In this document: positions 3,839 through 60,132 of the stretch, in pieces
Layout of the letters: every line of letters begins with the position of its first letter
Numbering within the stretch: the first letter of the stretch is position 1
Source: an uncultured bacterium
GTDB taxonomy: Bacteria > Patescibacteriota > Microgenomatia > Levybacterales > UBA12049
Direction: 5' to 3'
DNA length: 64,000 nucleotides
Assembly (NCBI GenBank): GCA_963826535.1
Contig: CAWGXL010000011.1
Coordinates: 256,809 to 320,808, forward strand
Notes under the pieces: model-generated
Databases searched by the model: none
What the model saw: the letters and a program-made list of their open reading frames with translations, nothing else
Told to the model about the DNA's origin: nothing
Translations under genes and position numbers: made by a program

Positions 3839-4747
3839 ATGAACTTCCTTGAAAAATATGATCTTCTGAAAAAATCTATTCCTGTACCTGCAATCATAAC
3901 CTTCCAATCAACTGATTGTGAATATGGAGATATCGTTTATAACAGTAAAAATTGTTACTATTGTTTCGATCCATCATATCTTATCGATGGGATGTATACC
4001 ACGCTTGGATTATGGAGTAATAAACTCGTAGATTGTACATCAGTATCGGAATCGGAAAAATGTTATCAATGTATTGATTCCAATAAATGTCATGACTCTA
4101 CATATCTTATGGATTGCAACAGTTGTACGGATTGCCATTTCTCAGCTTTTTTAAACTCTTGTACTGATTGTTTCGGTTGTGTTGCTTTAACGCATAAGAA
4201 ATATTGTATTTTTAACGAACAATTCTCCAAAGGAGAATATTTTAAAAAAGTTGAAGAATTAAAAAGAGAAAAACCGGAAAAGATTTTGGAGCAGATGATT
4301 GAATTAAAAAAACAGATACCTCATCCGGCTAGTCAGCAAGCCAATAATGAGAACTGTCCTTATGGCAATTATATTTACGATTCAAAAAATAGTTATTGGT
4401 GTTTTAATAGTTACTATGCTGAAAATTCAGGCTATAACTTCATAAGCGCGAACGCAAAGAACTGTTGGGATTTATATTGGTCAGGTAGTGGAGATCGAAG
4501 TCTTATAGCCGAGAGATGTTATGAACTAGTGATTTCAGGACGCTCTTCCTACGATTGTGCTTATTTATTACATAGCGATTTTTGTACAAACTGTTACTAT
4601 GGAGCATATCTTTTACACTGCTCCGACTGCTTCGGTTGTGTTGGGTTAAAAAATAAAAAATATTGCATTTTAAATAATCAACTTACGAAAGAACAATACG
4701 AAAAAGCACTTAAAGAGATCAAAAGTGAGCTGGGGTGGAAAATTTAA
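3839..4747 (+). CDS. Cys-rich repeat protein, paralog 2
   Basis: Same family, with a C-x2-C-x2-C-x8 15-residue periodicity. Confidence 0.85.
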   Translation: MNFLEKYDLLKKSIPVPAIITFQSTDCEYGDIVYNSKNCYYCFDPSYLIDGMYTTLGLWSNKLVDCTSVSESEKCYQCIDSNKCHDSTYLMDCNSCTDCHFSAFLNSCTDCFGCVALTHKKYCIFNEQFSKGEYFKKVEELKREKPEKILEQMIELKKQIPHPASQQANNENCPYGNYIYDSKNSYWCFNSYYAENSGYNFISANAKNCWDLYWSGSGDRSLIAERCYELVISGRSSYDCAYLLHSDFCTNCYYGAYLLHCSDCFGCVGLKNKKYCILNNQLTKEQYEKALKEIKSELGWKI

Positions 4748-4769
4748 TTATTAATGCTACGCAACATTT

Positions 4770-4860
4770 GTCATTCCGAGCGAAGTCGAGGAATCTCATA
4801 CCACAAAGTTGCTCAGTGATGCTAGATCCCTCCACTGCGCTACGCTTCGGTCGGGATGAC
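4770..4860. repeat. 91-bp MITE-like element with imperfect 16-bp terminal inverted repeats (GTCATTCCGAGCGAAG / CTTCGGTCGGGATGAC)
   Basis: Read directly. Intergenic, immediately 3' of paralog 2. Belongs to the GTCATTCC...GGAAT(GAC) repeat family also seen near 37.7 kb and 57.2 kb. Confidence 0.5.
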
Positions 4861-4878
4861 ACTGTATAAGATGAGTCA

Positions 4879-5226
4879 TTAAGTAGAGAGGTCTTTTATA
4901 AATTTGTTTTCTTTGTCTACTAAAATGTTGAGGGGTTTTATTGGTTTGTCAGTTAGTTCAAATCCCATGATGATGATCTCCTCGCCTACTTTGATGATAT
5001 GGGCGGCGGCGCCATTCATGCAAATTGTGCCTGAACCTCTTTTCCCTGGAATTATGTAAGTTTCCAGCCGGGCGCCTGTGGTATTGCTCACTATTAAAAC
5101 TTTTTCGCCAATCCATAAGCCGACTCTGTCAACTAAGTCAACGTCAATTGTCATACTGCCAATGTAGTTTGGATTAGCCTCGGTAACTGTGGCTTTATGG
5201 ATTTTTGATCGTAGCATCCATCTCAT
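4879..5226 (-). CDS. panD: Aspartate 1-decarboxylase (pyruvoyl-dependent)
   Basis: [28 protein letters not shown]... with the Gly-Ser self-cleavage site and the LETYII and [12 protein letters not shown] motifs. Confidence 0.85.
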
Positions 5227-5237
5227 ACGCTTTAATT

Positions 5238-5711
5238 TTACTTTATGCCTAATAATTCAACTTCAAAGATGAGAGTGGAGTTGGGAGGAATATCGCCAGC
5301 TCCCTGTTGTCCGTATCCCAGGTCCGGGGGAATGGTGAGTTTTCGTTTGCCGCCGACTTTCATTCCGATTACTCCGAGATCCCAGCCTTTGATAACCGCA
5401 CCGGTGTCAATTTGGGTCTCCAGCGGTTGACCGCGATCGTAGGAGCTGTCAAATTTTGTGCCGTTTGTCAGGGTGCCGAGATAATGGATGACTATTGTGT
5501 CACCGCTTTTAACTGCAGCGCCTGTGCCGGCTTGGGTATCTTCTATTTTTAATCCTAATGCGCCCGTTGTAGTATCCATAATTTTTGTATTATTTGCCGG
5601 TTCCGGTTGTTTGGCCGGGAGAAAGATGTCGGTAATGTGGAATGTAAATAACGATACTATTATTATTGCTAAAATTCCAACTACCAAAACGACTTGTGTC
5701 GATTTAGGCAT
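5238..5711 (-). CDS. FKBP-type peptidyl-prolyl cis-trans isomerase, membrane-anchored
   Basis: N-terminal TM helix followed by an FKBP domain ([27 protein letters not shown]...FEVELL). Confidence 0.8.
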
Positions 5712-5859
5712 TTGAGTTATTCTACACGAAACGAAGGATTGTTTGCAAGAGCATATTAGACTTTACTATATGTTTTTCCCTCATGCAAAACAATTCCTAA
5801 GATCTAAATCTTAAAGCCATGCGCCGGGTTTGTCCAATAACTAAGGCCGGAGCGCATTA

Positions 5860-18048: not shown

Positions 18049-18843
18049 TTAGCGCTTGAGTAGAAGGGTGGCGATAAATACGCACAGGGCTATGAGGACA
18101 ATTGTTCCTCCGGCGGCTAAGTCTAAATAGAATGAAGCAAAAATACCGGTAATTACAGAGAGCAACGAAACAAGCTCTGCTATTATTATAGTTTGTTTAA
18201 AGCCTTTCCTAAATTGTAAGGCTGTAACAATAGGAATCACAATGAGGGCCGAGATTAGAAGAATTCCAACAATACGCATTGAAATAGCAATTGTCGTGGC
18301 AGTTAAAACAATTAGAAGAGTATTAATAAGTTTGGTCGGAATTCCACTAACCCTGGCTGTTTCTTCATCAAAGGAGATATATACTAATTCTTTATAAAAA
18401 GCGAGTATAAGTCCTATGACAGCCAATCCGAGCACAAAAATAATACCAATATCACCAACTCGCACAGTTGTTATACTACCAAAAAGATAGCTGAATAAAT
18501 CTACGTTAAATCCGCGGGCTAAACTAATAAGAACAATAGCTACCGCTAAACTTCCTGAAAGAAAGATTGCTAAGGCCGATTCGCCATAAACTTTGTTCGA
18601 ATACCTAAGTCTTTCAATGACAATGGACGCAAAAATTGAAGTAATAAGCGCGGTCAGGACGGGATTTATTTTTGTGATAAGTCCAATTGCTACTCCTGCA
18701 AGGGACACATGAGCCAGAGTATCAGCCATAAGTGAGTAGCGGCGGAGCACAAGAAAAATTCCGATTAAAGGGCAAATAAGCCCGACTATTACTCCGGCTT
18801 GTAAAGCCCTGATCATAAAGTTATATTGAAAAATTTCTAACAT
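18049..18843 (-). CDS. znuB: Zinc/manganese ABC transporter permease
   Basis: Multi-TM permease of the ZnuB/MntB family, in a znuA-znuC-znuB arrangement. Confidence 0.8.
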   Translation of the reverse strand: MLEIFQYNFMIRALQAGVIVGLICPLIGIFLVLRRYSLMADTLAHVSLAGVAIGLITKINPVLTALITSIFASIVIERLRYSNKVYGESALAIFLSGSLAVAIVLISLARGFNVDLFSYLFGSITTVRVGDIGIIFVLGLAVIGLILAFYKELVYISFDEETARVSGIPTKLINTLLIVLTATTIAISMRIVGILLISALIVIPIVTALQFRKGFKQTIIIAELVSLLSVITGIFASFYLDLAAGGTIVLIALCVFIATLLLKR

Positions 18844-18846
18844 ATA

Positions 18847-19590
18847 TTAAAAATGTTTTTTATAATGTTCATCTATGTATTTAGTCTTCAGGAAATCGCG
18901 AGGTGTGCCATAAAACAAAACCTCTTTATTTATAAACGCAACTTCCAAAACTCCATGGTGCAGGATAATATCCATATCATGAGTAATAAGTACTAATGTT
19001 AACTCCAGTTTTTTATTCAACGTTTCAAGAAGCTCAAAAAACTGGTTTCTTGTTTCTATATCAACTCCTACAGTCGGCTCATCCAAAAAGATTACAGTCG
19101 GCTCAGAAACGAGCGCCCTGGCAATAAAAATTCGCTGTTGCTGCCCACCGGAAAGATCACCTATTCGCCTGTTACCAAACTTTAGCATGCCAACCTGCTC
19201 AAGTGCCTTATCTACTGCCTGCCAATCATACTTTTTCAGCGAATTAAATAATCCCAATTTTGCGTATATGCCCATTGCGACTACTTCTCTTGCTGTTGAG
19301 GGAAAGTTTTGGTCGAAGTTTACTTTTTGAGGAACATACCCGATGCTCGGCCAATCTTTAAAAGTTGCTAAATCTTGATTAAAAAGTTTTATCTTTCCGT
19401 GTGTTGGTTTATATAGCCCAAGGATGCACTTAAGAAGAGTGGTTTTGCCTCCGCCATTGGGGCCAACAATACCCAGATAATCACCTTTGTGGATTTGGAG
19501 GTTTATTTCCTTTAAGACTTCTTCTGTGTTATAGGCAAATGAGACGTTCTTTATCTCAATGATGTTTTTTGTGTGGTCTACTTGCTGCAT
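18847..19590 (-). CDS. znuC: Zinc ABC transporter ATP-binding protein
   Basis: Walker A (GPNGGGKTT), ABC signature (LSGGQQQR) and Walker B (IFLDEPT). Confidence 0.85.
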   Translation of the reverse strand: MQQVDHTKNIIEIKNVSFAYNTEEVLKEINLQIHKGDYLGIVGPNGGGKTTLLKCILGLYKPTHGKIKLFNQDLATFKDWPSIGYVPQKVNFDQNFPSTAREVVAMGIYAKLGLFNSLKKYDWQAVDKALEQVGMLKFGNRRIGDLSGGQQQRIFIARALVSEPTVIFLDEPTVGVDIETRNQFFELLETLNKKLELTLVLITHDMDIILHHGVLEVAFINKEVLFYGTPRDFLKTKYIDEHYKKHF

Positions 19591-20552
19591 TCTAAGGCTA
19601 TTTGCAGGTTTTTCAAATTATCTTCCATGACTGTGAAGTAATTTTTTCCTGTTCTTATATCATCATCTGATAATCCTTCAATCGGGTCAAGTACCAGAGT
19701 TTTTGCTCCTGTCTCATTGGCTATTGTCTCTGATAATTTAGGACTGACCAGAGTTTCAAAAAAGATATACTTTATATTATTTTCTTTTACAAACTCTGAA
19801 ACCTGCGCAAGTTGTGCCGGGGAAGGTTCTTCATCAGGGGTTATGCCGGAAATTGGAACTTGAGTCAAATTATATTCTGCTGCTAAATAACTAAATGCTG
19901 TATGAGAGGTGACAAAGCTCTTTTGACTGCAAGCGCTTAGTCCTTGTGCAAATTTTCTATCTAATTCATCAAGTTTTTGTTTTAAGTCTTCTGTGTTTGC
20001 AACGTAGGAAGCTCTATTGTTTGGATCAATCTTTATAAAACCTTGATAGATTTTATCTACTTGTGATTTGGCTAAGACGGGACTTAACCAGGTGTGCGGG
20101 TCAATATTCGATTCTTCCTCATGCTTTTCATCTTCTTCTTCCTCATGTTCTTCTTCATGCCTTTGAGTACTTTCTTGGAGGCTTAATCCTTCTGTCGTAT
20201 TGACGATGGTTACATTTTTAAGTTCGTCTTTTAGCTTGTCAAGCCAGGGCTCAAAACTACCTCCATTGACAATAAGAAGTTTAGTGTTTTGAATACGCGC
20301 AATATCTTGAGGGGTAGGGTCATAATCATGAGGCTCAACACCGGCTGGGGTAATATTAAACACATCTGTTTTGTCTTTTCCAATAACTGAAGCAAAAAAA
20401 TAGAGAGGGTAAAAAGAAGCGGTTATTTGATGTTTGTTAGTTTTGGCATTATCAATCTTTGTAGTATTTTGTTTCGATGTTTCACTATTAAAATAAATGA
20501 AGCCTGCGATTAATATAACTGCGATGATAATATACAACCAAATGTTTTTCAT
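19578..20552 (-). CDS. znuA: Metal (zinc) ABC substrate-binding protein with a His/acidic-rich loop
   Basis: TroA/ZnuA-like fold. HEEEHEEEEDEKHEEES loop typical of ZnuA. Confidence 0.8.
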   Translation of the reverse strand: MKNIWLYIIIAVILIAGFIYFNSETSKQNTTKIDNAKTNKHQITASFYPLYFFASVIGKDKTDVFNITPAGVEPHDYDPTPQDIARIQNTKLLIVNGGSFEPWLDKLKDELKNVTIVNTTEGLSLQESTQRHEEEHEEEEDEKHEEESNIDPHTWLSPVLAKSQVDKIYQGFIKIDPNNRASYVANTEDLKQKLDELDRKFAQGLSACSQKSFVTSHTAFSYLAAEYNLTQVPISGITPDEEPSPAQLAQVSEFVKENNIKYIFFETLVSPKLSETIANETGAKTLVLDPIEGLSDDDIRTGKNYFTVMEDNLKNLQIALECSK

Positions 20553-20558
20553 AATTTA

Positions 20559-21038
20559 TTAGTTTTGACTCTTCTGACAACTTTTACAGAGGCCATAAAA
20601 TTCTAAAGCATGGCTAGTGACTTTAAAATGCTTTTTCTTTTCAATATCTTTTTGTAAACTGACAATGTTGCAATCTGATATATCTTCAATTTTTCCACAG
20701 TTTTCGCAAATGAGATGGTGATGGTCTTCGCGATTTGCTAGTTCGTATCGAAATTTTCCTTCGTTAAATGATATTTGCCTTGTGATGCCTTTGTCGGTGA
20801 ACATATTCATAATGCGAAAGACTGTCGCGGGATCTGCTTTAATATTTTTGTCGTCGAGATAGTCTTTTATCATCTGGATATCAACCGGAGTTGCGGCGCT
20901 TTCAAGTAATTTCATCACCGCGATTCGAGCAGGGGTTGCCCGAAGGTCTGCTTCGTTTAATTCGGCTTTGCAGTCATGTTTTATTTTGGCAATTGTCATA
21001 ATTAATCGGATGATAGCATAAATGCAATAAGGTTGCAA
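20559..21038 (-). CDS. zur: Fur-family metalloregulator, likely Zur
   Basis: Fur-like winged helix with HHHLICENCG...CKSC metal sites. Heads the znuACB genes. Confidence 0.75.
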   Translation of the reverse strand: MQPYCIYAIIRLIMTIAKIKHDCKAELNEADLRATPARIAVMKLLESAATPVDIQMIKDYLDDKNIKADPATVFRIMNMFTDKGITRQISFNEGKFRYELANREDHHHLICENCGKIEDISDCNIVSLQKDIEKKKHFKVTSHALEFYGLCKSCQKSQN

Positions 21039-21044
21039 GAAAAA

Positions 21045-21674
21045 TCAGGCCGCTTCCTCATATGCAGTACATGATCCACATGCGCCATTGTCTCCCAAAT
21101 CTTTACCGCAGTTTTTACAATGTTCGTGTTTATCTGTTTTATGTTCACTTCCTCCATAAGCACCACCTACTGTGTTAGATGTTGCCGGTTGTGCACTGCC
21201 ACTACTATGTTGTGTTGGCGGGCAACAATTTATAGCGGCTGAGGCTACTGCAACAACCCTCGAGGAATTGTCGATAGCTCTTTTTGCTAGATTATATTTT
21301 TCAAAAATTACTGCTCTATTTTCCCTTGGTCTTGAAAAATTTACAACGATCACGTTATTTTTTGGTAGATCTTTGGAAGACTGGCTTCCAATTGTTTCAT
21401 TTGCAATTTCATTTATTGGAGGGGTGTCAAAAAAATCTTCCATTACCATATCATCAATTTCTCCATCTGCTGCAAAGCCTGTCATCTCAGGATTTATTAA
21501 TTCGGGAGTGAAATCTTTAGCTATTGGCTTTGAATCAATCGGCTGTAAATAGAATGCAGCTGAGGGGTGCTCTTTTGAAATTCTATTTTTTGAAAAATTA
21601 TTGAGTTGAGGAATTTGTGATACAAACTCTTGCTTTGGAATACTGAAGCTTGGTATCATTTCTGCATTTAACAT
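21045..21674 (-). CDS. Hypothetical protein with a Cys/His-rich C-terminus
   Basis: C-terminal HEHCKNCGKDLGDNGACGSC. Only 6 nt upstream of zur on the same strand. Confidence 0.5.
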   Translation of the reverse strand: MLNAEMIPSFSIPKQEFVSQIPQLNNFSKNRISKEHPSAAFYLQPIDSKPIAKDFTPELINPEMTGFAADGEIDDMVMEDFFDTPPINEIANETIGSQSSKDLPKNNVIVVNFSRPRENRAVIFEKYNLAKRAIDNSSRVVAVASAAINCCPPTQHSSGSAQPATSNTVGGAYGGSEHKTDKHEHCKNCGKDLGDNGACGSCTAYEEAA

Positions 21675-21682
21675 ATTACCCG

Positions 21683-22711
21683 TTATCTTACTCCCAAATT
21701 ACTTTTAAAAACCTGGACTACATCCCTTACTCTAGCATCTGCATATTCATGCATTCCTGATGCCGTTTTCAATAAAGCGTCAACGACTGCTCCTTTTTGA
21801 GTACCTCCTCCAAATCCTTGAGGATTTGTTTCAGCAATCCTTTGAGCTGCTGCATCTATTCCCCCAACGAAGAGAGGTGATTCATCTGCTTCGAGGAAAC
21901 CTGAGGTGCGATGTAATGGTACAACATGCCCTGTTTGGTCAATTTTCACTTCTGCTACCCATTGATTTTTTGATGGTCTACCTCCCAAATAAATAGCATC
22001 TGGGCGAATGTGAATGTTTCTTGGAATAAAATGTGCGGTTAAGAAACTTCTTGGAATAGTAAGACGGGGATTTTTGTGGCTATTACACCCTTCGGCAGCA
22101 ATAGAGTTATCAAGTTCGGTCGGATCTCCTGTAGTGGAGGCAAATACTCTGGACATAACATTAGTTGCTTCATTCCCTTTTCTTGGGTGAAAAAGACGGG
22201 CAAGAAGCTCGATAGCATCTTGTTCTTCAGTACGAACTGTCCCTTGTGAATCAATTAGATATTCTCCCCAAACTCCTTGAGTTCTGCCTCCTTGCAGATC
22301 TTCTTGTCGAGGTTTCCTTATATAGCCGAACAATTCAAGAGAATGATTTTCGTTTCCAATTACAGTCGCAATTGTCCTAATTCCTCCAAACCCTTGAGCA
22401 AATTTTTCAAACTTAGTTCTATTTAAATCTGTAAAATTAGGCTCACGTACTGCGGTTAAGGCAATAATATCTCCAGGAGATAATCTAGACATTTCCCCTA
22501 TTCCTGCTATATCCAGATTAATAAGAGATGTCCCCCTGCCGGTCTCTCGTGATCTCAGCTGGGGTGAGGCTGCAACAACTTCAATTGCGCTTTCTCTACC
22601 AATTCCAAAAACTTGGCCTGCTGTTGTGTGTCCATTATTACCTAGAGCGCTATCTAATTTCACAGCGTCTCGCTGAACTTCTCTTGCGCCTTCCACTTCA
22701 ATTTTTATCAT
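21683..22711 (-). CDS. Hypothetical protein (342 aa)
   Basis: Long ORF with a strong promoter immediately upstream. No recognisable domain. Confidence 0.55.
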   Translation of the reverse strand: MIKIEVEGAREVQRDAVKLDSALGNNGHTTAGQVFGIGRESAIEVVAASPQLRSRETGRGTSLINLDIAGIGEMSRLSPGDIIALTAVREPNFTDLNRTKFEKFAQGFGGIRTIATVIGNENHSLELFGYIRKPRQEDLQGGRTQGVWGEYLIDSQGTVRTEEQDAIELLARLFHPRKGNEATNVMSRVFASTTGDPTELDNSIAAEGCNSHKNPRLTIPRSFLTAHFIPRNIHIRPDAIYLGGRPSKNQWVAEVKIDQTGHVVPLHRTSGFLEADESPLFVGGIDAAAQRIAETNPQGFGGGTQKGAVVDALLKTASGMHEYADARVRDVVQVFKSNLGVR

Positions 22712-22758
22712 ATCTTTTGTGGTTATGCAGTGATTATTAACTGCAATTTAGTTGCATT

Positions 22759-22787
22759 AGTATATGCGATATGGTCGCGTTTGTCAA
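22759..22787 (-). promoter_or_regulatory. Sigma70-type promoter TTGACA-17-TATACT driving the 22711 gene
   Basis: Read on the minus strand. Its 16-bp core is identical to the promoter at 23389-23417. Confidence 0.6.
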
Positions 22788-22821
22788 GTATTGCTTTTAT
22801 TGATTGGTATATTCTTAAAGC

Positions 22822-22850
22822 AGAAAATCCCAACAAGGTGGGATTTTCTG
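22822..22850. terminator. Rho-independent terminator hairpin AAAATCCCA-acaaggt-GGGATTTT
   Basis: Perfect 9-bp stem flanked by A/T runs on both sides, so it is bidirectional. Confidence 0.6.
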
Positions 22851-22898
22851 TATGTATTGTGTAAATTCTGACAAAAAACTAGTCAATGAGATTTTTTA

Positions 22899-23060
22899 TT
22901 TTGCGAGTCTGGCGGCATCTTCTTTGCTTAGTATTTTAAAAAGTTTCATACCATTGACTTCTGCTTTTGCCGCCTTTCTATTATTCTTCATTGTTACAAC
23001 AGTTACTTGCTTATCCGGTACATCTACGGGTTGACGTGTTTTTACGTTATAAAATTTCAA
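22899..23060 (-). CDS. Unannotated small basic protein (53 aa)
   Basis: Minus-strand TTG start 7 nt after GGAGGTG. It overlaps the upstream gene's stop (TTGA) and is followed by the terminator above. Missed by the ORF track because it is under 60 aa. Confidence 0.45.
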
Positions 23061-23368
23061 GATTTATTCACCTCCTTCCACATCAGTATAAGTTCTGTTT
23101 CGCGATTTACTTGGCCTTCTGTCCATGTCGGATATTTCACATGCAGCAACTCATGAATAATGTCATCCATATGCAGTTTTCTTGTGTGGTACAGATAAGC
23201 GGTACAGTTTATATGATCTGCAAGAATTCCGACAAATTCATGGCCTCTTTTGCAGCTGTCATCACATACCTGATGGATGGAAATTCTTTCGCAAGTTATT
23301 TTGTAGTCGTGCAGTTGTAATTCTTTTTGCCACCGGGAAAGTTCAAAGGTTAATCTCGAGTCACTCAT
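23057..23368 (-). CDS. Small protein with an HExxH motif (putative zinc metallopeptidase-like)
   Basis: DDIIHELLHVKYPTW plus several Cys/His upstream. Confidence 0.45.
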   Translation of the reverse strand: MSDSRLTFELSRWQKELQLHDYKITCERISIHQVCDDSCKRGHEFVGILADHINCTAYLYHTRKLHMDDIIHELLHVKYPTWTEGQVNRETELILMWKEVNKS

Positions 23369-23388
23369 AAATGCAAATTATTTGCATT

Positions 23389-23417
23389 AGTATATGCAGC
23401 TCAGTTACATTTGTCAA
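23389..23417 (-). promoter_or_regulatory. Sigma70-type promoter TTGACA-17-TATACT with the same 16-bp core
   Basis: TTGCATTAGTATATGC is identical to the 22751-22766 copy. Confidence 0.6.
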
Positions 23418-24145: not shown

Positions 24146-24592
24146 TCATACTGGATTATATCGTTCAACAAAAAACTTTTTTAATAAAACTACGTCAATA
24201 TCTCTGAATTTTTGTAGTCTTGCATCGTTGGTTATAAGAACATCTGCTTTGGCCATAATAGCTGTTGCGAGCTGGATAGAGTCAGGCAAGCGGAAACCAT
24301 TGTTTCTGCGAATTCTTGCTGCCTCGAGTCCTATATCTTCTGTGACTTCATATTGAGTAAAATTGGGTAGAGTCTTAAATTTTTCTTCTATTTTACTGAG
24401 GACACTTGGAGGAGATGGGTAGGATAAGGCCTCGATAGCGCTAATAATACTTGTAATTCCGCGGTAGTCCCCATTTATAATTACCTTAAAGAGTCGGTTT
24501 GTGTATTCAATATATGAAGGATTCTCTTCAAAATGGTAGATGAAAATATTGCTGTCAAGAGCAAGTATTTTATTTTTCATGCCATTCATCAC
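24146..24592 (-). CDS. vapC: PIN-domain toxin (VapC-like)
   Basis: LDSNIFIY at the N-terminus and ITNDARL at the C-terminus, typical of PIN acidic residues. Overlaps the upstream antitoxin. Confidence 0.7.
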   Translation of the reverse strand: MMNGMKNKILALDSNIFIYHFEENPSYIEYTNRLFKVIINGDYRGITSIISAIEALSYPSPPSVLSKIEEKFKTLPNFTQYEVTEDIGLEAARIRRNNGFRLPDSIQLATAIMAKADVLITNDARLQKFRDIDVVLLKKFFVERYNPV

Positions 24593-24815
24593 GAAGTTTA
24601 TCTAAATAGGCTGTAGTATCAATATTTTTCCAAGCCTCCTTAGCAATACCACGAGAACTCTCGACCCAGCTTTTTGGATTAGTATGAATTGCAACGCTAT
24701 TTTTTCCCATGACACCAATACTCACTTTGCTTCCGGGTTTAAAATCCTTTATCTTTTTACGAATTTCTTTTGGAATAACAATCTGATATTTAGTTCCAAC
24801 GGTTACTTGCTGCAT
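24570..24815 (-). CDS. vapB: AbrB/MazE-type (SpoVT-AbrB fold) antitoxin (VapB-like)
   Basis: MQQVTVGTKYQIVIPKEIRKKI... swapped-hairpin motif. Confidence 0.65.
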   Translation of the reverse strand: MQQVTVGTKYQIVIPKEIRKKIKDFKPGSKVSIGVMGKNSVAIHTNPKSWVESSRGIAKEAWKNIDTTAYLDKLRDEWHEK

Positions 24816-24874: not shown

Positions 24875-26050
24875 CTATTTTGGTCTTCTTTTTTGGCTGG
24901 TGGTCATGTCCAGGTCTTTCGAAATAGTGTGGAGAAAGTCGGAGAAATTGGTTCCGCGGAGGGCGACGAAGGCAGCTAAAAGCGTGGTGAAGGGGACGGC
25001 GAGGATGAGGGCGCTGCTGCCGACAATTGTTGTTATAATTTCTTCAATTGTTGTTTCATTATTGAGAATTACCCACCACGGTAAGTTGGAAGGATTGAGG
25101 GTAAAAAAGATAAATATACCAAGTGAGGAGCCGGTGTATGCTAGAACCAGTGTATTGATAAGGGAGGCGATGTGTTCTTTGCCAATTTCCATACCTTTCT
25201 TAAATAATTCATTAAATTTTTGTTTGGGATTTTCTTTTACTAGGGTGAATATGGTTATTGATTGAGTTGTAGTAATATCGTTGAGCGCTCCTAATGTTCC
25301 GATAAGTATAGCTCCAAGAAGTAACCCTTGTGTGTTTATCGACTGAGTTGCTCCGATTTGTAATTGATAGACTTCTTCACTTCCTAATCCAAACAGGTTC
25401 AATGCGTCTACGAGGACGGTGGATATCCAACCTGTAAATACCAGAGCCGCGGCTGTGCCGATGACTGCAACTGTTGTCTTGAGTGAGAAACCGTGCGCGA
25501 TATAAGTTGTTACGAGCAGCATGATACAGGCTGCAATAATTACAACTTGCACAGGGTCCTGACCTTTCACTATCTGCGGAATCATCCATTGACTTATCAG
25601 CAATAAACTTATGATAAGACCGATAAACGCGCCAATGCCTTTTTTACCGCCAATAAATACAATCAAAACAATAAAGCCGAAAAGCACGAACCAAAATGTA
25701 TCCAGGCGGTAGGGTTCGTAGATTGAATATGACTTTTTACCTGTTGGGTCGAGTCTGCTACTTATGACAACTTTGGCGCCGGCATTTAATTGATTTGATT
25801 TCATGTTCGGGTTGCCGGAACGGCTGATAACTATTATTTTTCCAATTTCTGGTCCTTCCAGTAATTTTACCTGCACGGTCTCTTCATTTATGGTTGAGTC
25901 GGCGATGTGAATAGTTTTATGGTTTAAGATTTTTACTACTTCTGCGCGGACAAATGTCTCTTGATTATCTAATTGGCCGTTGGGGGCGGCAGAAGCTGCA
26001 GGCGGAAAGAGTAAGAAAAGGGCAACTGCAAAAAGAAAAAGCTTTTTCAT
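24875..26050 (-). CDS. YibE/F-like integral membrane protein
   Basis: Signal peptide, an extracytoplasmic domain, then about 8 TM helices. Likely start at MKKLFLF. Confidence 0.55.
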   Translation of the reverse strand: MKKLFLFAVALFLLFPPAASAAPNGQLDNQETFVRAEVVKILNHKTIHIADSTINEETVQVKLLEGPEIGKIIVISRSGNPNMKSNQLNAGAKVVISSRLDPTGKKSYSIYEPYRLDTFWFVLFGFIVLIVFIGGKKGIGAFIGLIISLLLISQWMIPQIVKGQDPVQVVIIAACIMLLVTTYIAHGFSLKTTVAVIGTAAALVFTGWISTVLVDALNLFGLGSEEVYQLQIGATQSINTQGLLLGAILIGTLGALNDITTTQSITIFTLVKENPKQKFNELFKKGMEIGKEHIASLINTLVLAYTGSSLGIFIFFTLNPSNLPWWVILNNETTIEEIITTIVGSSALILAVPFTTLLAAFVALRGTNFSDFLHTISKDLDMTTSQKRRPK

Positions 26051-26276
26051 GAAATTAATTATAGCAAATAAGAGGTTGTCTGAGAGGAACAACTGGGGCT
26101 AAAAGACAATCCCCGCCGATCTATGCTCCTTTTTTTAGGAAGAACACGCGGGCGGGTTTGTCTTTTTTGCTTTTCGTACTAGAACTTATCTTAAATAAGA
26201 TTAAGGCTTGAATGTAAGGGTGGGAGTTTAGAATATGTAAGAAGTGTGTAAAAAAATGATGGTATAATTTCCCTAT

Positions 26277-28102: not shown

Positions 28103-29257
28103 ATGTCCTATTTAATAAAGGGAAAATACAGAAATGTTACAAGTTATTTGAGGGAACGCTTAAGCCCTAGAAATATCATAGGATTATCTTCGTCCGGAAA
28201 TATAGATGATGAGCTTTGGATTTTGTTGGAATACTATTCAGAAGTTGATGATGTTGGATTAAAGTTCTTAAAAACATTAGGTATTTCAAATAATCTAATA
28301 AGGAAACGGACTTTTAAAACATTTCAAGGATTTGTTAGGCAGGCAAAAAATTATTATTACTCTGCAAAAACATTGCATCCTCGTTCATCTGGATTGCTCT
28401 ATTATTACTGCTTCTTAAACTTAGCGAAAGCGGCATTAGTTATTAAGGATCCTACCATTCGGGGAAAATTTATTCCTCATGGATTAAAATATAAGATCTC
28501 CAATAATTCGAGATTTGCTGAGCAAACGGTCTCTTTAGGGTCTAGTGGAGTTTTCGATAGATTTTACGAATGGTATTTTGATACGCCAATTACTCATCGA
28601 TCATTTAATATTCAAACATTGCTTAATTATTGTACTGATATTGGGTATCAGTGTCAGATATCGGGAATAAAGCAACCAAAAATAGTTTACGGATATGCCG
28701 TTAGCGCAATGGATGAAAAAAATATAACAAATTGGTCAATAGTGGGCTTTTATGAATTAAACGAAGTTTTAAAATACAAAAAGGCCATGAGGCCTTTCTT
28801 CGGTGTATTTGAAAAAATCGATTTACCAGAGCCTGATGCGCGTGAGATGTTTGATATAAGTCAGCCAGCATTATCACGGGTCAGTTTTTTTCAAAGCATA
28901 AATGTGAAAAAATGGTTATCAAATGACACACCGGATTATCTAACTGTACGATCTGAGGCTATACAATCACTACGTAACATTTTACAAATAAATTATTTTA
29001 AATCAAATTTTGATTTTATACTGAGTTTACCATACAAGTTTAATAAACAAATAAGGATAGATGAAACGATTGCGATATATTTAGTTATGTATTACATTTC
29101 TAACTTAGTTAGATATAAACCAGAATACTTAGAAAATTTGCTTGATACCAAAGAATCATGGTTAATAGAAAGTTTTATAAAATCATGCCCGGTGACTTTC
29201 TTAAGAAGTATTATTTCAAGAATTATAAGAACAGATTATGTATTTGAAAATAGATAA
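28103..29257 (+). CDS. YaaC-like family protein (putative); the local sequence is AT-richer than its surroundings
   Basis: SSGLLYYYCFLNLAKAAL and YLVMYYISNLVRYKPE resemble YaaC family motifs. Confidence 0.4.
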   Translation: MSYLIKGKYRNVTSYLRERLSPRNIIGLSSSGNIDDELWILLEYYSEVDDVGLKFLKTLGISNNLIRKRTFKTFQGFVRQAKNYYYSAKTLHPRSSGLLYYYCFLNLAKAALVIKDPTIRGKFIPHGLKYKISNNSRFAEQTVSLGSSGVFDRFYEWYFDTPITHRSFNIQTLLNYCTDIGYQCQISGIKQPKIVYGYAVSAMDEKNITNWSIVGFYELNEVLKYKKAMRPFFGVFEKIDLPEPDAREMFDISQPALSRVSFFQSINVKKWLSNDTPDYLTVRSEAIQSLRNILQINYFKSNFDFILSLPYKFNKQIRIDETIAIYLVMYYISNLVRYKPEYLENLLDTKESWLIESFIKSCPVTFLRSIISRIIRTDYVFENR

Positions 29258-59761: not shown

Positions 59762-60132
59762 AATTTCTCCTCGATCAGAGCGTTGAACGCCGATTAGCTC
59801 CTTTTCTCAGAAACTTAGGCCATGATGTCAAAGTTGTGAGCATTGACTACGAGGCCGGAATATTAGATCAAGAAGTTCTTCTCTTGGCCAACAAAGAGAG
59901 CCGTATTTTACTCACTAATGATAAAGGCGATTTTGGGGAGCTAATATTTCGCTACCATCACTCGCACTCTGGCGTTATTCTCTTTAGGCGGATGATATCA
60001 GGAGATATGCTTACAAAACAAGAAAGGCTCTCGTATGTTCTCCAAGAATATGCAAATCAGCTGCATCATTTTATAGTTGTGAGTCCAAAGAGTGTGCGTG
60101 TCAGAAAAAAACAGGGACGAAAAGCCATTTGA
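59758..60132 (+). CDS. DUF5615-like PIN-fold protein
   Basis: MKFLLDQSV...ILLTNDKGDFGEL. Overlaps the DUF433 gene by 4 nt. Confidence 0.55.
   Translation: MKFLLDQSVERRLAPFLRNLGHDVKVVSIDYEAGILDQEVLLLANKESRILLTNDKGDFGELIFRYHHSHSGVILFRRMISGDMLTKQERLSYVLQEYANQLHHFIVVSPKSVRVRKKQGRKAI

Follow-up and report, generated by a model that had tools for sequence, protein, structure and literature searches.

A putative Zur-repressed zinc-starvation locus carrying a rare two-gene module in an uncultured Patescibacteria-type bacterium

INTRODUCTION

Why would a bacterium place two genes of no recognized family directly ahead of a zinc regulator and a zinc importer? The question is raised by a 64,000-nucleotide (nt) stretch of an uncultured bacterium of the Levybacterales (Patescibacteriota; contig CAWGXL010000011.1, positions 256,809 to 320,808 of the forward strand), the whole of which was analyzed and is called the window here. 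On its minus strand, genes for a 342-amino-acid (aa) protein and a 209-aa partner precede a fur-family gene, inferred to be zur, and znuA, znuC, and znuB. An original prediction, made from the DNA letters, had the pair cotranscribed with zur-znuACB and with two further genes, for proteins of 214 and 319 aa, from one strong promoter, and it took a palindrome over the -10 element as the possible operator. To our knowledge, the zinc economy of the ultra-small, host-dependent Patescibacteria is almost unstudied, and our literature searches found no publication on Zur in the group.

Here, we propose that the window carries a zinc-starvation locus repressed by Zur and that the pair acts in cytoplasmic zinc handling, a reading that we hold as a whole with moderate confidence. 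Its regulatory half is well supported by comparison of promoters and operators among genomes, and a role in cytoplasmic zinc handling is probable from the motifs and context of the pair. Very probably, the pair serves a new and still unexplained zinc-starvation function in a small-genome bacterium of the Patescibacteria type.

RESULTS

The genes of the locus run, on the minus strand, from a promoter (P1) through a 103-aa open reading frame (ORF), a gene for a 54-aa small protein, and a terminator-like hairpin to a second promoter (P2), which is followed by the 342-aa and 209-aa genes, the fur-family gene, znuA, znuC, znuB, and the 214-aa and 319-aa ORFs (Table 1). The pair is as first described: the ORF list and translations confirmed both genes on the minus strand, as well as the C-terminal HEHCKNCGK...CGSC of the 209-aa protein. 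Pfam likewise bore out a Fur-family gene followed by ZnuA, ZnuC, and ZnuB (PF01475, PF01297, ABC_tran, and ABC-3, respectively). Among solved proteins in a search of PDB sequences, the nearest to ZnuA were YcdH (2e-73) and AdcA (2e-64), far ahead of manganese and iron binders. An Rfam scan of the window found no RNA family.

What the promoters of the locus share is a palindrome. The conserved unit is a 7-1-7 palindrome, TGCAA-N5-TTGCA, with the consensus TGCAACTwAGTTGCA. Four exact copies of TGCAA-N5-TTGCA occur in the 64 kb; the expected number is 0.18, and not one of 100 shuffled sequences had as many. Three of the four lie at the adjacent promoters P1, P2, and Pzur. The strong promoter originally called ahead of the pair was found where predicted, with 11 of 12 consensus matches, and has a twin of identical hexamers at P1; the motif said to be shared was real and extends to the operator boxes. 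P1 and P2 each have two boxes, a degenerate one that takes up the 17-bp spacer and a strong one that starts 2 nt past the -10 element. So close a match to consensus suggests that the promoter of the pair would give high output after derepression.

Table 1. Features of the predicted zinc locus in the window. Scores of boxes are position weight matrix (PWM) scores; dG is folding free energy.
Feature	Position	Strand	Remarks
P1 promoter-like site, TTGACA-17-TATACT	23389..23417	-	11/12 consensus matches; hexamers identical to P2
P1 spacer box, degenerate TGTAA-N5-CTGCA	23395..23409		Between -35 and -10; PWM 13.3; position kept in related loci
P1 operator, perfect 9-1-9 palindrome AATGCAAAT-A-ATTTGCATT	23370..23388		Core of 15 bp, 23372-23386; directly after -10; PWM 18.1
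103-aa ORF with HELLH motif	23057..23368	-	First gene after P1
54-aa small-protein gene	22896..23060	-	TTG start; GGAGGTG 8 nt upstream
Terminator-like hairpin between P1 and P2 units	22820..22851	-	dG -17.4 kcal/mol; z = -6.0
P2 promoter-like site, TTGACA-17-TATACT	22759..22787	-	11/12 consensus matches
P2 spacer box, degenerate CGCGA-N5-TCGCA	22765..22779		PWM 11.8; position conserved
P2 operator, TGCAA-CTAAA-TTGCA	22742..22756		2 nt past -10; exact; PWM 21.3, the best in the window
342-aa protein	21683..22711	-	Founder of a small uncharacterized family
209-aa partner protein	21045..21674	-	Begins 8 nt past the 342-aa stop
Pzur promoter-like site, TTGCAA-17-TATCAT	21010..21038	-	TG before -10; conserved in L001 and L009
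Pzur operator, TGCAA-CCTTA-TTGCA	21023..21037		Overlaps -35; exact; PWM 16.7
Fur-family regulator, inferred Zur	20559..20999	-	146 aa from ATG 20999; PF01475, E = 3e-28
ZnuA/AdcA-type zinc-binding protein	19578..20552	-	His/Glu-rich loop; PF01297, E = 4e-87
ZnuC, ABC (ATP-binding cassette) ATPase	18847..19590	-	PF00005 (ABC_tran)
ZnuB, ABC-3 permease	18049..18843	-	PF00950, E = 1e-69

The palindrome first proposed as the operator, TGCAT-N6-ATGCA, did not hold up. Its sequence, TGCAT-ATACTA-ATGCA, joins the right half of the spacer box to the left half of the downstream one; the palindrome is perfect at P1 only, reads CGCAT...ATGCA at P2, and is no palindrome in related loci. Two further boxes in the window lie inside genes, the fourth exact copy (28363-28377) in a YaaC-like ORF and a one-mismatch copy (60051-60065) in another ORF. 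Both probably are chance matches; intragenic Zur boxes do occur in Bacillus subtilis (PMC4324032).

Both the pair and its promoter layout recur in other genomes. The partner gene follows the gene of the 342-aa family at -4 to +35 nt in all nine loci with sequence there, and such gaps suggest joint production of the two proteins. Where enough downstream sequence exists, the pair is followed directly by a fur-family gene in four of six loci (the window, L001, L009, and L011; 26 to 54% protein identity). Locus L001, the one most closely related to the window, reads small ORF, terminator, 350 aa, 221 aa, Fur-family protein of 146 aa, ZnuA, ZnuC, and ZnuB; L009 reads 325 aa, 173 aa, Fur-family protein of 136 aa, and a ZIP transporter; and L011 reads YibE/F, small ORF, 301 aa, 321 aa, Fur-family protein of 135 aa (after a 14-nt gap with no promoter), and GSDH. 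In the window, L001, and L009, zinc importers follow the regulator gene within a few nucleotides or overlap it. Contigs L007, L010, and L012 carry the family gene and its partner and then end, and the two genes are also present in L013/L014 and in L015, the last with YibE/F and a divergent small ORF.

In every locus that extends far enough upstream, the promoter has the form TTGACA-aa-[TGCAA N5 TTGCA]-ta-TAnnnT-(2-3 nt)-[TGCAA N5 T(T/C)GCA]. This layout stands upstream of the family gene in L001, L007, L008, L009, L012, L013, and L015 and, in L011, ahead of the small ORF with which the cluster begins. When up to one mismatch is allowed, the regulatory zones of the window and related loci hold 22 boxes in 1.49 kb, and the other 130 kb hold 8; because the zones were drawn post hoc, the comparison is descriptive only. 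That the 342-aa and 209-aa genes belong with zur-znuACB was thus upheld by gene order and by a shared operator, and the two are legitimate candidates for zinc homeostasis.

How many transcripts cover the locus? The zur gene had been placed 6 nt past the 209-aa gene, but the TTG concerned, at 21038, lies within a promoter-like site. Most likely, zur starts at ATG 20999: the resulting 146-aa form is the one in the public sequence collection and agrees with the homologues of 146, 136, and 135 aa. With that start, the gap between the 209-aa gene and zur is 45 nt, and it holds a promoter-like site of its own (Pzur) plus an exact copy of the palindrome. An independent zur promoter had been named beforehand as a refuting result, and Pzur is a candidate for one, in the same arrangement in L001 and L009. 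No terminator-like hairpin was called between the 209-aa stop and zur (fold z = -0.2), so read-through from P2 is possible. Cotranscription of the pair with zur-znuACB thus stands as read-through that the sequence permits, and falls short in that zur has its own promoter-like site and operator.

A single operon running from P2 through the pair and zur-znuACB to the 214-aa and 319-aa genes, with TGCAT-N6-ATGCA as its operator, is accordingly improbable. Such an operon would suit the lack of a terminator before zur, the L011 regulator gene that begins 14 nt past the partner gene with no promoter between, and the mere 40 nt that separate znuB from the 214-aa gene. It is at odds, however, with the promoter-like site and exact box directly upstream of the zur ATG in three loci and with an operator that proves to be an unconserved junction of two 7-1-7 boxes. 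Moreover, the 214-aa and 319-aa ORFs, although they do start 40 nt past znuB as described, are lineage specific: both are missing from L001, in which a convergent gene follows znuB instead, and the 214-aa start is preceded, at 14 nt, by a TATAAT. Neither protein matched any family, PDB sequence, or defense system, and we find no evidence in the sequence that ties them to the zinc unit. On the other side of the pair, P1 and P2 appear to drive separate units because the terminator-like hairpin lies between them and has a counterpart in L001 (a hairpin and U-run; dG -20.7, z = -8.5). The upstream unit of P1, the 103-aa and 54-aa genes, and the terminator, which the original prediction lacked, is under the same operator. 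Overall, the original prediction was mostly correct in what it observed and correct in part in how it explained it.

To which metal does the regulator respond? The protein belongs to the Fur family (PF01475, 98 bits against a cutoff of 23), and the four regulators linked to the pair (window, L001, L009, and L011) are 44 to 64% identical to one another. All its matches to NCBIfam equivalog models fell below cutoff, the PerR (best) and Fur models outscoring the Zur model, and its nearest solved relatives are B. subtilis PerR (3e-20) and Fur proteins (about 1e-20), followed by FurB/Zur (3e-14). Assignment to the Zur, Fur, or PerR subfamily is not possible from the protein sequence alone. A scan of genome contigs with the Zur alignment found only distant Fur genes of Clostridia and Fusobacteria.

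The neighbors of the box are more telling. When a metagenome collection was scanned with the promoter-plus-box pattern TTGACAAATGCRANNNNNTYGCRTATA, at least 120 loci with 123 sites were found, 116 of them with a downstream ORF. The first gene was of the Fur family at no fewer than 80 sites (80 of 116 among the matches listed). Among those same matches, 83 downstream Fur-family ORFs had a median identity of 52% to the window regulator (range, 26 to 71%); a zinc importer lay within the next ORFs at 73 of 116 sites (ZIP at 47, ZnuABC at 26), a 54/58-aa small protein at 11 of 116, and at least one of these three kinds of gene at 95 of 116. A CobW/COG0523 GTPase with a His-rich stretch stood at one listed site (L082; PF02492, 5e-12). 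Second boxes accompanied 59 of the 123 listed sites, 22 to 24 bp from the first in 53 of the 59. Among the classified ORFs downstream of the box, none encoded a catalase, AhpC, or an iron-uptake protein.

Because TGCAA-N5-TTGCA is tied across the metagenome to fur-family and ZIP/ZnuABC genes and, at one site, to a CobW gene, we conclude that it is the predicted operator of a lineage-wide Zur. Two further points lead the same way: ZnuA is of a zinc-specific type, and autoregulation and box architecture fit B. subtilis, in which Zur and Fur boxes of established 7-1-7/9-1-9 architecture overlap sigma-A promoter elements (PMC4324032, PMC5007448). A PerR- or Fur-like regulator, with the pair serving an oxidative-stress or iron response through redox-active Cys/His motifs, would account for the order of relatives given above and for the thiol-redox genes (DsbA/Thioredoxin_4, DsbD, Redoxin, and MsrA) that recur near the module in L001, L009, L011, and L013. 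We consider such a regulator very unlikely, however, since zinc importers directly follow the regulator gene in three loci, ZIP or ZnuABC genes and a COG0523 GTPase accompany the box elsewhere, catalase, AhpC, and iron-uptake genes were absent from the classified ORFs, and ZnuA is of the YcdH/AdcA type.

Other genes also lie behind the promoter-plus-box pattern. In L034 (6617-11379), a Zur-box promoter drives a set of four, with matching ORF lengths in L043 and L108: by Pfam, a ParA/CbiA-like P-loop NTPase, an Orn/DAP-decarboxylase-like pyridoxal phosphate enzyme, and a PALP-rhodanese enzyme, and, as judged from sequence only, an aminotransferase-like protein. The set presumably recalls small-molecule zincophore pathways. 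Further examples (L082 3395-4839, L040 1149-3110, L054 4947-6113, and L132 1418-3010) include the CobW/COG0523 GTPase, with HEDHDHHHHDDHGHHDHH, ClpB-like AAA+ proteins (with further ones in L042 and L105), and several membrane proteins that have long His-rich stretches and no Pfam family.

How common is the pair within this regulon? Not one of the 120 box-bearing metagenome loci listed contained a gene of the 342-aa family, and thus the module is not a core member of the regulon. Scans of genome contigs and of metagenome contigs with the family alignment also gave no match, and an exact look-up of the window's own 342-aa protein led to no recorded contig. The 342-aa/209-aa pair is a rare accessory of the Zur regulon.

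The 342-aa protein founds a small family. A word-indexed homologue search returned a single relative, P0002 (54% identity), and a profile of the two sequences was used in a HMMER scan of 1.84 billion representatives. The family as found comprises 23 proteins, the window's own P0001 included, and the 23-sequence alignment consists of 22 scan matches and P0002. Left out was P0029 (1,486 aa), an fn3-repeat protein whose match to residues 221 to 281 was regarded as spurious. For another member, P0021, the called start falls within the promoter and box of its own gene (L012 1630-1700); the true start probably is a downstream Met (MSSPELD...) and the deposited N-terminal extension false.

Conserved motifs of the family are W148, G179-x-E181, G-[C/H]209-x-S-H212-x-x-P215, N222, and N296-P-x-G-x-G-x-G-T304. 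Over the 23 sequences, G179, H212, and P215 are invariant, and W148, E181, G208, N222, N296, G301, G303, and T304 nearly so. At position 209, 18 members have Cys and 5 have His, an exchange that, beside an invariant His, fits the behavior of a metal ligand. His212, Glu181, and Cys/His209 together look like a putative metal site. An AlphaFold2 model built from the alignment was confident (predicted local distance difference test [pLDDT], 90.4; predicted template modeling score, 0.89), and structure searches with it gave no significant match: Foldseek gave a best E value of 1.3 against the PDB, with template modeling scores below 0.16, and nothing against BFVD, and the family profile found nothing significant among PDB sequences.

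No member of the family has a Pfam family. In particular, the cobW domain (PF02492) was found neither in the 342-aa protein and its 22 relatives nor in the partner by a search that does detect it in L082. Pfam, NCBIfam, PHROGs, and PADLOC gave nothing usable for the 342-, 209-, 214-, 319-, 103-, and 227-aa proteins of the window; the only match, to Attacin_N (E = 0.005), was below cutoff and treated as noise. A supposed likeness of 'EGCNS' and 'GxEATQ' to peptide deformylase motifs was dropped, there being no Pfam match and no deformylase among the fold matches. Finally, when plasmids and phages were searched by tblastn, the 342-aa protein had no match, and thus nothing points to a mobile origin for its gene.

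Could the 342-aa protein be an enzyme that replaces a zinc-dependent counterpart? The 342-aa protein might be a zinc-independent or low-zinc stand-in for an essential zinc enzyme, like FolE2 in B. subtilis, with the partner as its dedicated maturation or assembly factor. Zur regulons routinely include such replacement paralogues (PMC5007448). The conserved Glu, Cys-or-His, and His residues and the Gly-rich NPxGxGxGT loop would suit a catalytic site, and a very strong promoter would suit a replacement. We nonetheless think it unlikely: the protein resembles no known enzyme in sequence or fold, a family of 23 representatives that is missing from the 120 box-bearing loci listed is far too rare for a general replacement, and a His/Cys-rich partner is not expected of a replacement enzyme.

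The partner is a protein of a different kind. In the window, its N-terminal part is acidic, poorly conserved, and contains MEDFFD; after that come CCPP, a His-rich run, and a C-terminal CxxC-x9-CxxC, the C-terminal part reading ...HEHCKNCGKDLGDNGACGSC.... Partners are alike only in short motifs, namely, an aromatic-acidic stretch (MEDFFD, DFFSFSVYDFE, or DVFDFDDFD), CxCP[PH] or a His/Cys variant, the His-rich run, and four C-terminal Cys residues. They range from 148 to 321 aa, with 5 to 9 Cys residues and isoelectric points of 4.2 to 5.1, and their last 45 residues hold exactly 4 Cys and 2 to 7 His residues. Complete partners end in the His-rich run and CxxC-x7-10-CxxC, e.g., DHGHCATCGAEIEKGGVCAKC, EHVHCESCGADMKNGVCPKC, and SHSDHEHCSCGGHIENGTCEKC; this C terminus can be read in the eight loci with a complete partner, that of L010 being cut. 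No transmembrane segment was predicted in partners, and both proteins of the pair lack a signal peptide or membrane segment. The word-indexed search found no relative of the 209-aa protein, and the partner profile matched nothing significantly among PDB sequences.

Acidic, variable leader-like sequence followed by conserved Cys and His residues might also describe a precursor peptide. If so, the 209-aa protein would be a long-leader precursor of a Cys/His metal-binding peptide, a ribosomal zincophore, and the 342-aa protein its modifying enzyme. The aromatic-acidic motif of the variable part, the tight coupling of the two genes, and a 342-aa fold that could be that of an enzyme are consistent with such a pathway. 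Yet neither the pair nor the nine loci encode a protease, an exporter, a recognition domain for ribosomally synthesized and posttranslationally modified peptides, or a known maturase domain, and partners of this length are long for precursors. Moreover, the C-terminal Cys spacing is that of a zinc knuckle pair and fits a folded metal site better than a core peptide, and signal peptides and membrane segments are absent. A zincophore is, to our minds, a very unlikely explanation of the pair.

Two side observations concern the partner. Its H-x-H-C-x-x-C-G-K (21045-21200, minus strand) resembles the regulator's own metal-site motif, DHHHLICENCGK (20559-20999, minus strand); the match of the partner profile to Fur proteins in the PDB was weak and nonsignificant (E = 0.45). 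Moreover, one listed box-bearing locus, L039, contains the sole partner-type gene among them (minus strand; ORFs of the reversed locus at 4126-5097 and 5103-5717), ending ...KHDHCGNCGGDLNDGKCSKC. Upstream of that gene come fur and the gene of a 323-aa protein; the latter protein cannot be recognized as part of the 342-aa family and shares with it only a 32-column N-terminal stretch with 'PGSxI' (hhalign probability, 24%). Proteins of the partner type may be paired with different kinds of globular protein.

The P1 unit encodes two small proteins. The 103-aa ORF contains HELLH, which is HExxH-like, and several Cys residues, and its stop overlaps the 54-aa start. It was found in this genome only and had no match in Pfam, NCBIfam, PHROG, or PADLOC, and P1 of L001, which does not have it, leads straight to the small ORF. 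The 103-aa ORF may be a lineage-specific insertion into the unit. The 54-aa ORF is unrecorded, yet it belongs to a very widespread family with subtypes of 54 and 58 aa and no fewer than 450 proteins, some of them named Patescibacteria group or Levybacteria by their sources. The family is Cys free (119 of the 120 best homologues have no Cys, and one has a single Cys), the window protein has no Pfam match at E <= 10, and its model (pLDDT, 88) has five strands and a C-terminal helix with nonsignificant likeness to Sac7d/Sso7d and LysW (E >= 0.1). A Cys-free paralogue of a zinc-ribbon protein (DUF5679) was considered and rejected on these same grounds. A Zur-box promoter precedes the small protein in the window, L001, and L011 and, divergently, in L007 and L015; in other genomes (L016 to L023), the promoter of the small protein has no box.

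Upstream of P1 lie genes of other kinds. A YibE/F-family membrane protein (PF07907, E = 3e-62) is encoded near the module at 24875-26092 on the minus strand, and such a gene adjoins or neighbors the module in four loci: the window, L009 (1-213), L011 (6590-7546), and L015 (5451-6578). Its recurrence suggests a functional link of YibE/F to the zinc cluster. Between the YibE/F gene and that of the 227-aa protein, a VapC-like PIN-domain gene (148 aa) overlaps an upstream 81-aa ORF (24146-24815, minus strand). From their arrangement only, the two are a candidate toxin-antitoxin module.

DISCUSSION

How might such a locus work? We envision three adjacent minus-strand units, in which P1 would drive the 103-aa and 54-aa genes up to the terminator, P2 the 342-aa and 209-aa genes, and Pzur zur-znuACB. 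Zinc-loaded Zur would bind the boxes that flank the -10 element at P1 and P2 and overlap the -35 element at Pzur, and the promoters would be occluded. When zinc drops, Zur would leave and all three units would fire; transcription of zur-znuACB would start at Pzur, and read-through from P2 would probably add to it. The pair, made in quantity, would act in the cytoplasm on zinc. The acidic partner may capture Zn(II) through its His-rich run and C-terminal Cys4 knuckle, perhaps also through the central CxCP, and the globular 342-aa protein may form a complex with it as the docking or receiving side. Together they would buffer, deliver, or use scarce zinc.

Several observations weigh against this account, beginning with a regulator that is no closer to Zur in sequence than to PerR or Fur and with the absence of the 342-aa family from the 120 box-bearing loci listed. 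L013 and L015 contain the module and the box and have no adjacent fur-family gene. Binding of Zur to the box and the response of that binding to zinc are predictions, the link among regulator, box, and zinc being comparative. Likewise, zinc handling by the pair is read from motifs and regulation, and the C terminus of the partner was no clear zinc ribbon: the best DZR match (PF12773), in L009, scored 18.8 bits against a cutoff of 27.3 (E = 0.002), two homologues matched weakly, and the window protein had no DZR match. Finally, induction in zinc shortage would be odd for a protein that itself needs zinc, a chaperone or buffer excepted. The most specific form of our proposal, a two-component zinc chaperone or buffer that has no solved fold relative, is switched by Zur, and occurs in few Patescibacteria lineages, is offered tentatively, as a possibility that we would not yet call likely. 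If true, it would be a functional analogue of the COG0523 GTPases that works without nucleotide hydrolysis.

What is new here is the box consensus and a rare, conserved two-gene module without a recognized family, solved structural relative, or known function. The locus yields a testable operator, TGCAACTwAGTTGCA, often present as two boxes that lie on either side of the -10 element at a spacing of about 23 bp, and this operator can be used at once to annotate regulons in thousands of uncultured genomes. Through a single metagenome scan, it also gives a first sketch of a lineage-wide Zur regulon, with zur, ZnuABC, ZIP, a CobW GTPase, the 54/58-aa protein, and several unexplained gene sets. If the pair handles zinc, it is a new protein type among the few cytoplasmic zinc-trafficking devices; if it does not, it offers a clean handle on an unknown starvation function.

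Among known systems, the nearest to the whole locus is the Zur regulon of B. subtilis. The half-site of B. subtilis Zur is TCGTAAT. Here, in contrast, the half-site is TGCAA and the usual layout is two boxes 22 to 24 bp apart around the -10 element; ZIP transporters are frequent, and ribosomal-protein paralogues were absent from the classified ORFs. B. subtilis, for its part, has no counterpart of the 342-aa/partner pair or of the 54-aa protein. Alike in the two are a Fur-family repressor gene beside znuACB (PMC4324032, PMC5007448), a 7-1-7/9-1-9 palindromic box over sigma-70-type promoter elements that adjacent units share, and a wider regulon with a zinc ABC importer and a COG0523 GTPase.

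The pair itself can be set beside three kinds of zinc protein. COG0523 metallochaperones (YciC/ZagA, ZigA, and YeiR) are Zur-repressed, cytoplasmic, and abundant when induced, with CxCC and a His-rich stretch, and their role is the one that we infer for the pair. Unlike them, however, the pair has neither a P-loop nor a cobW domain, would split the function over two proteins, and has no solved structural relative, and a genuine CobW protein sits elsewhere in the same regulon (L082). The partner recalls the bacterial metallothioneins SmtA and BmtA, which are small, acidic, and cytoplasmic and bind zinc through Cys and His residues, but it is longer, with a limited number of Cys residues and a long, poorly conserved acidic region, matches no metallothionein family, and is always accompanied by a globular protein of 300 to 340 aa. 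Finally, the C-terminal CxxC-x7-10-CxxC of the partner resembles DZR zinc ribbons, from which its subthreshold scores set it apart, as does the preceding (HxH)n run, which is foreign to zinc-ribbon families.

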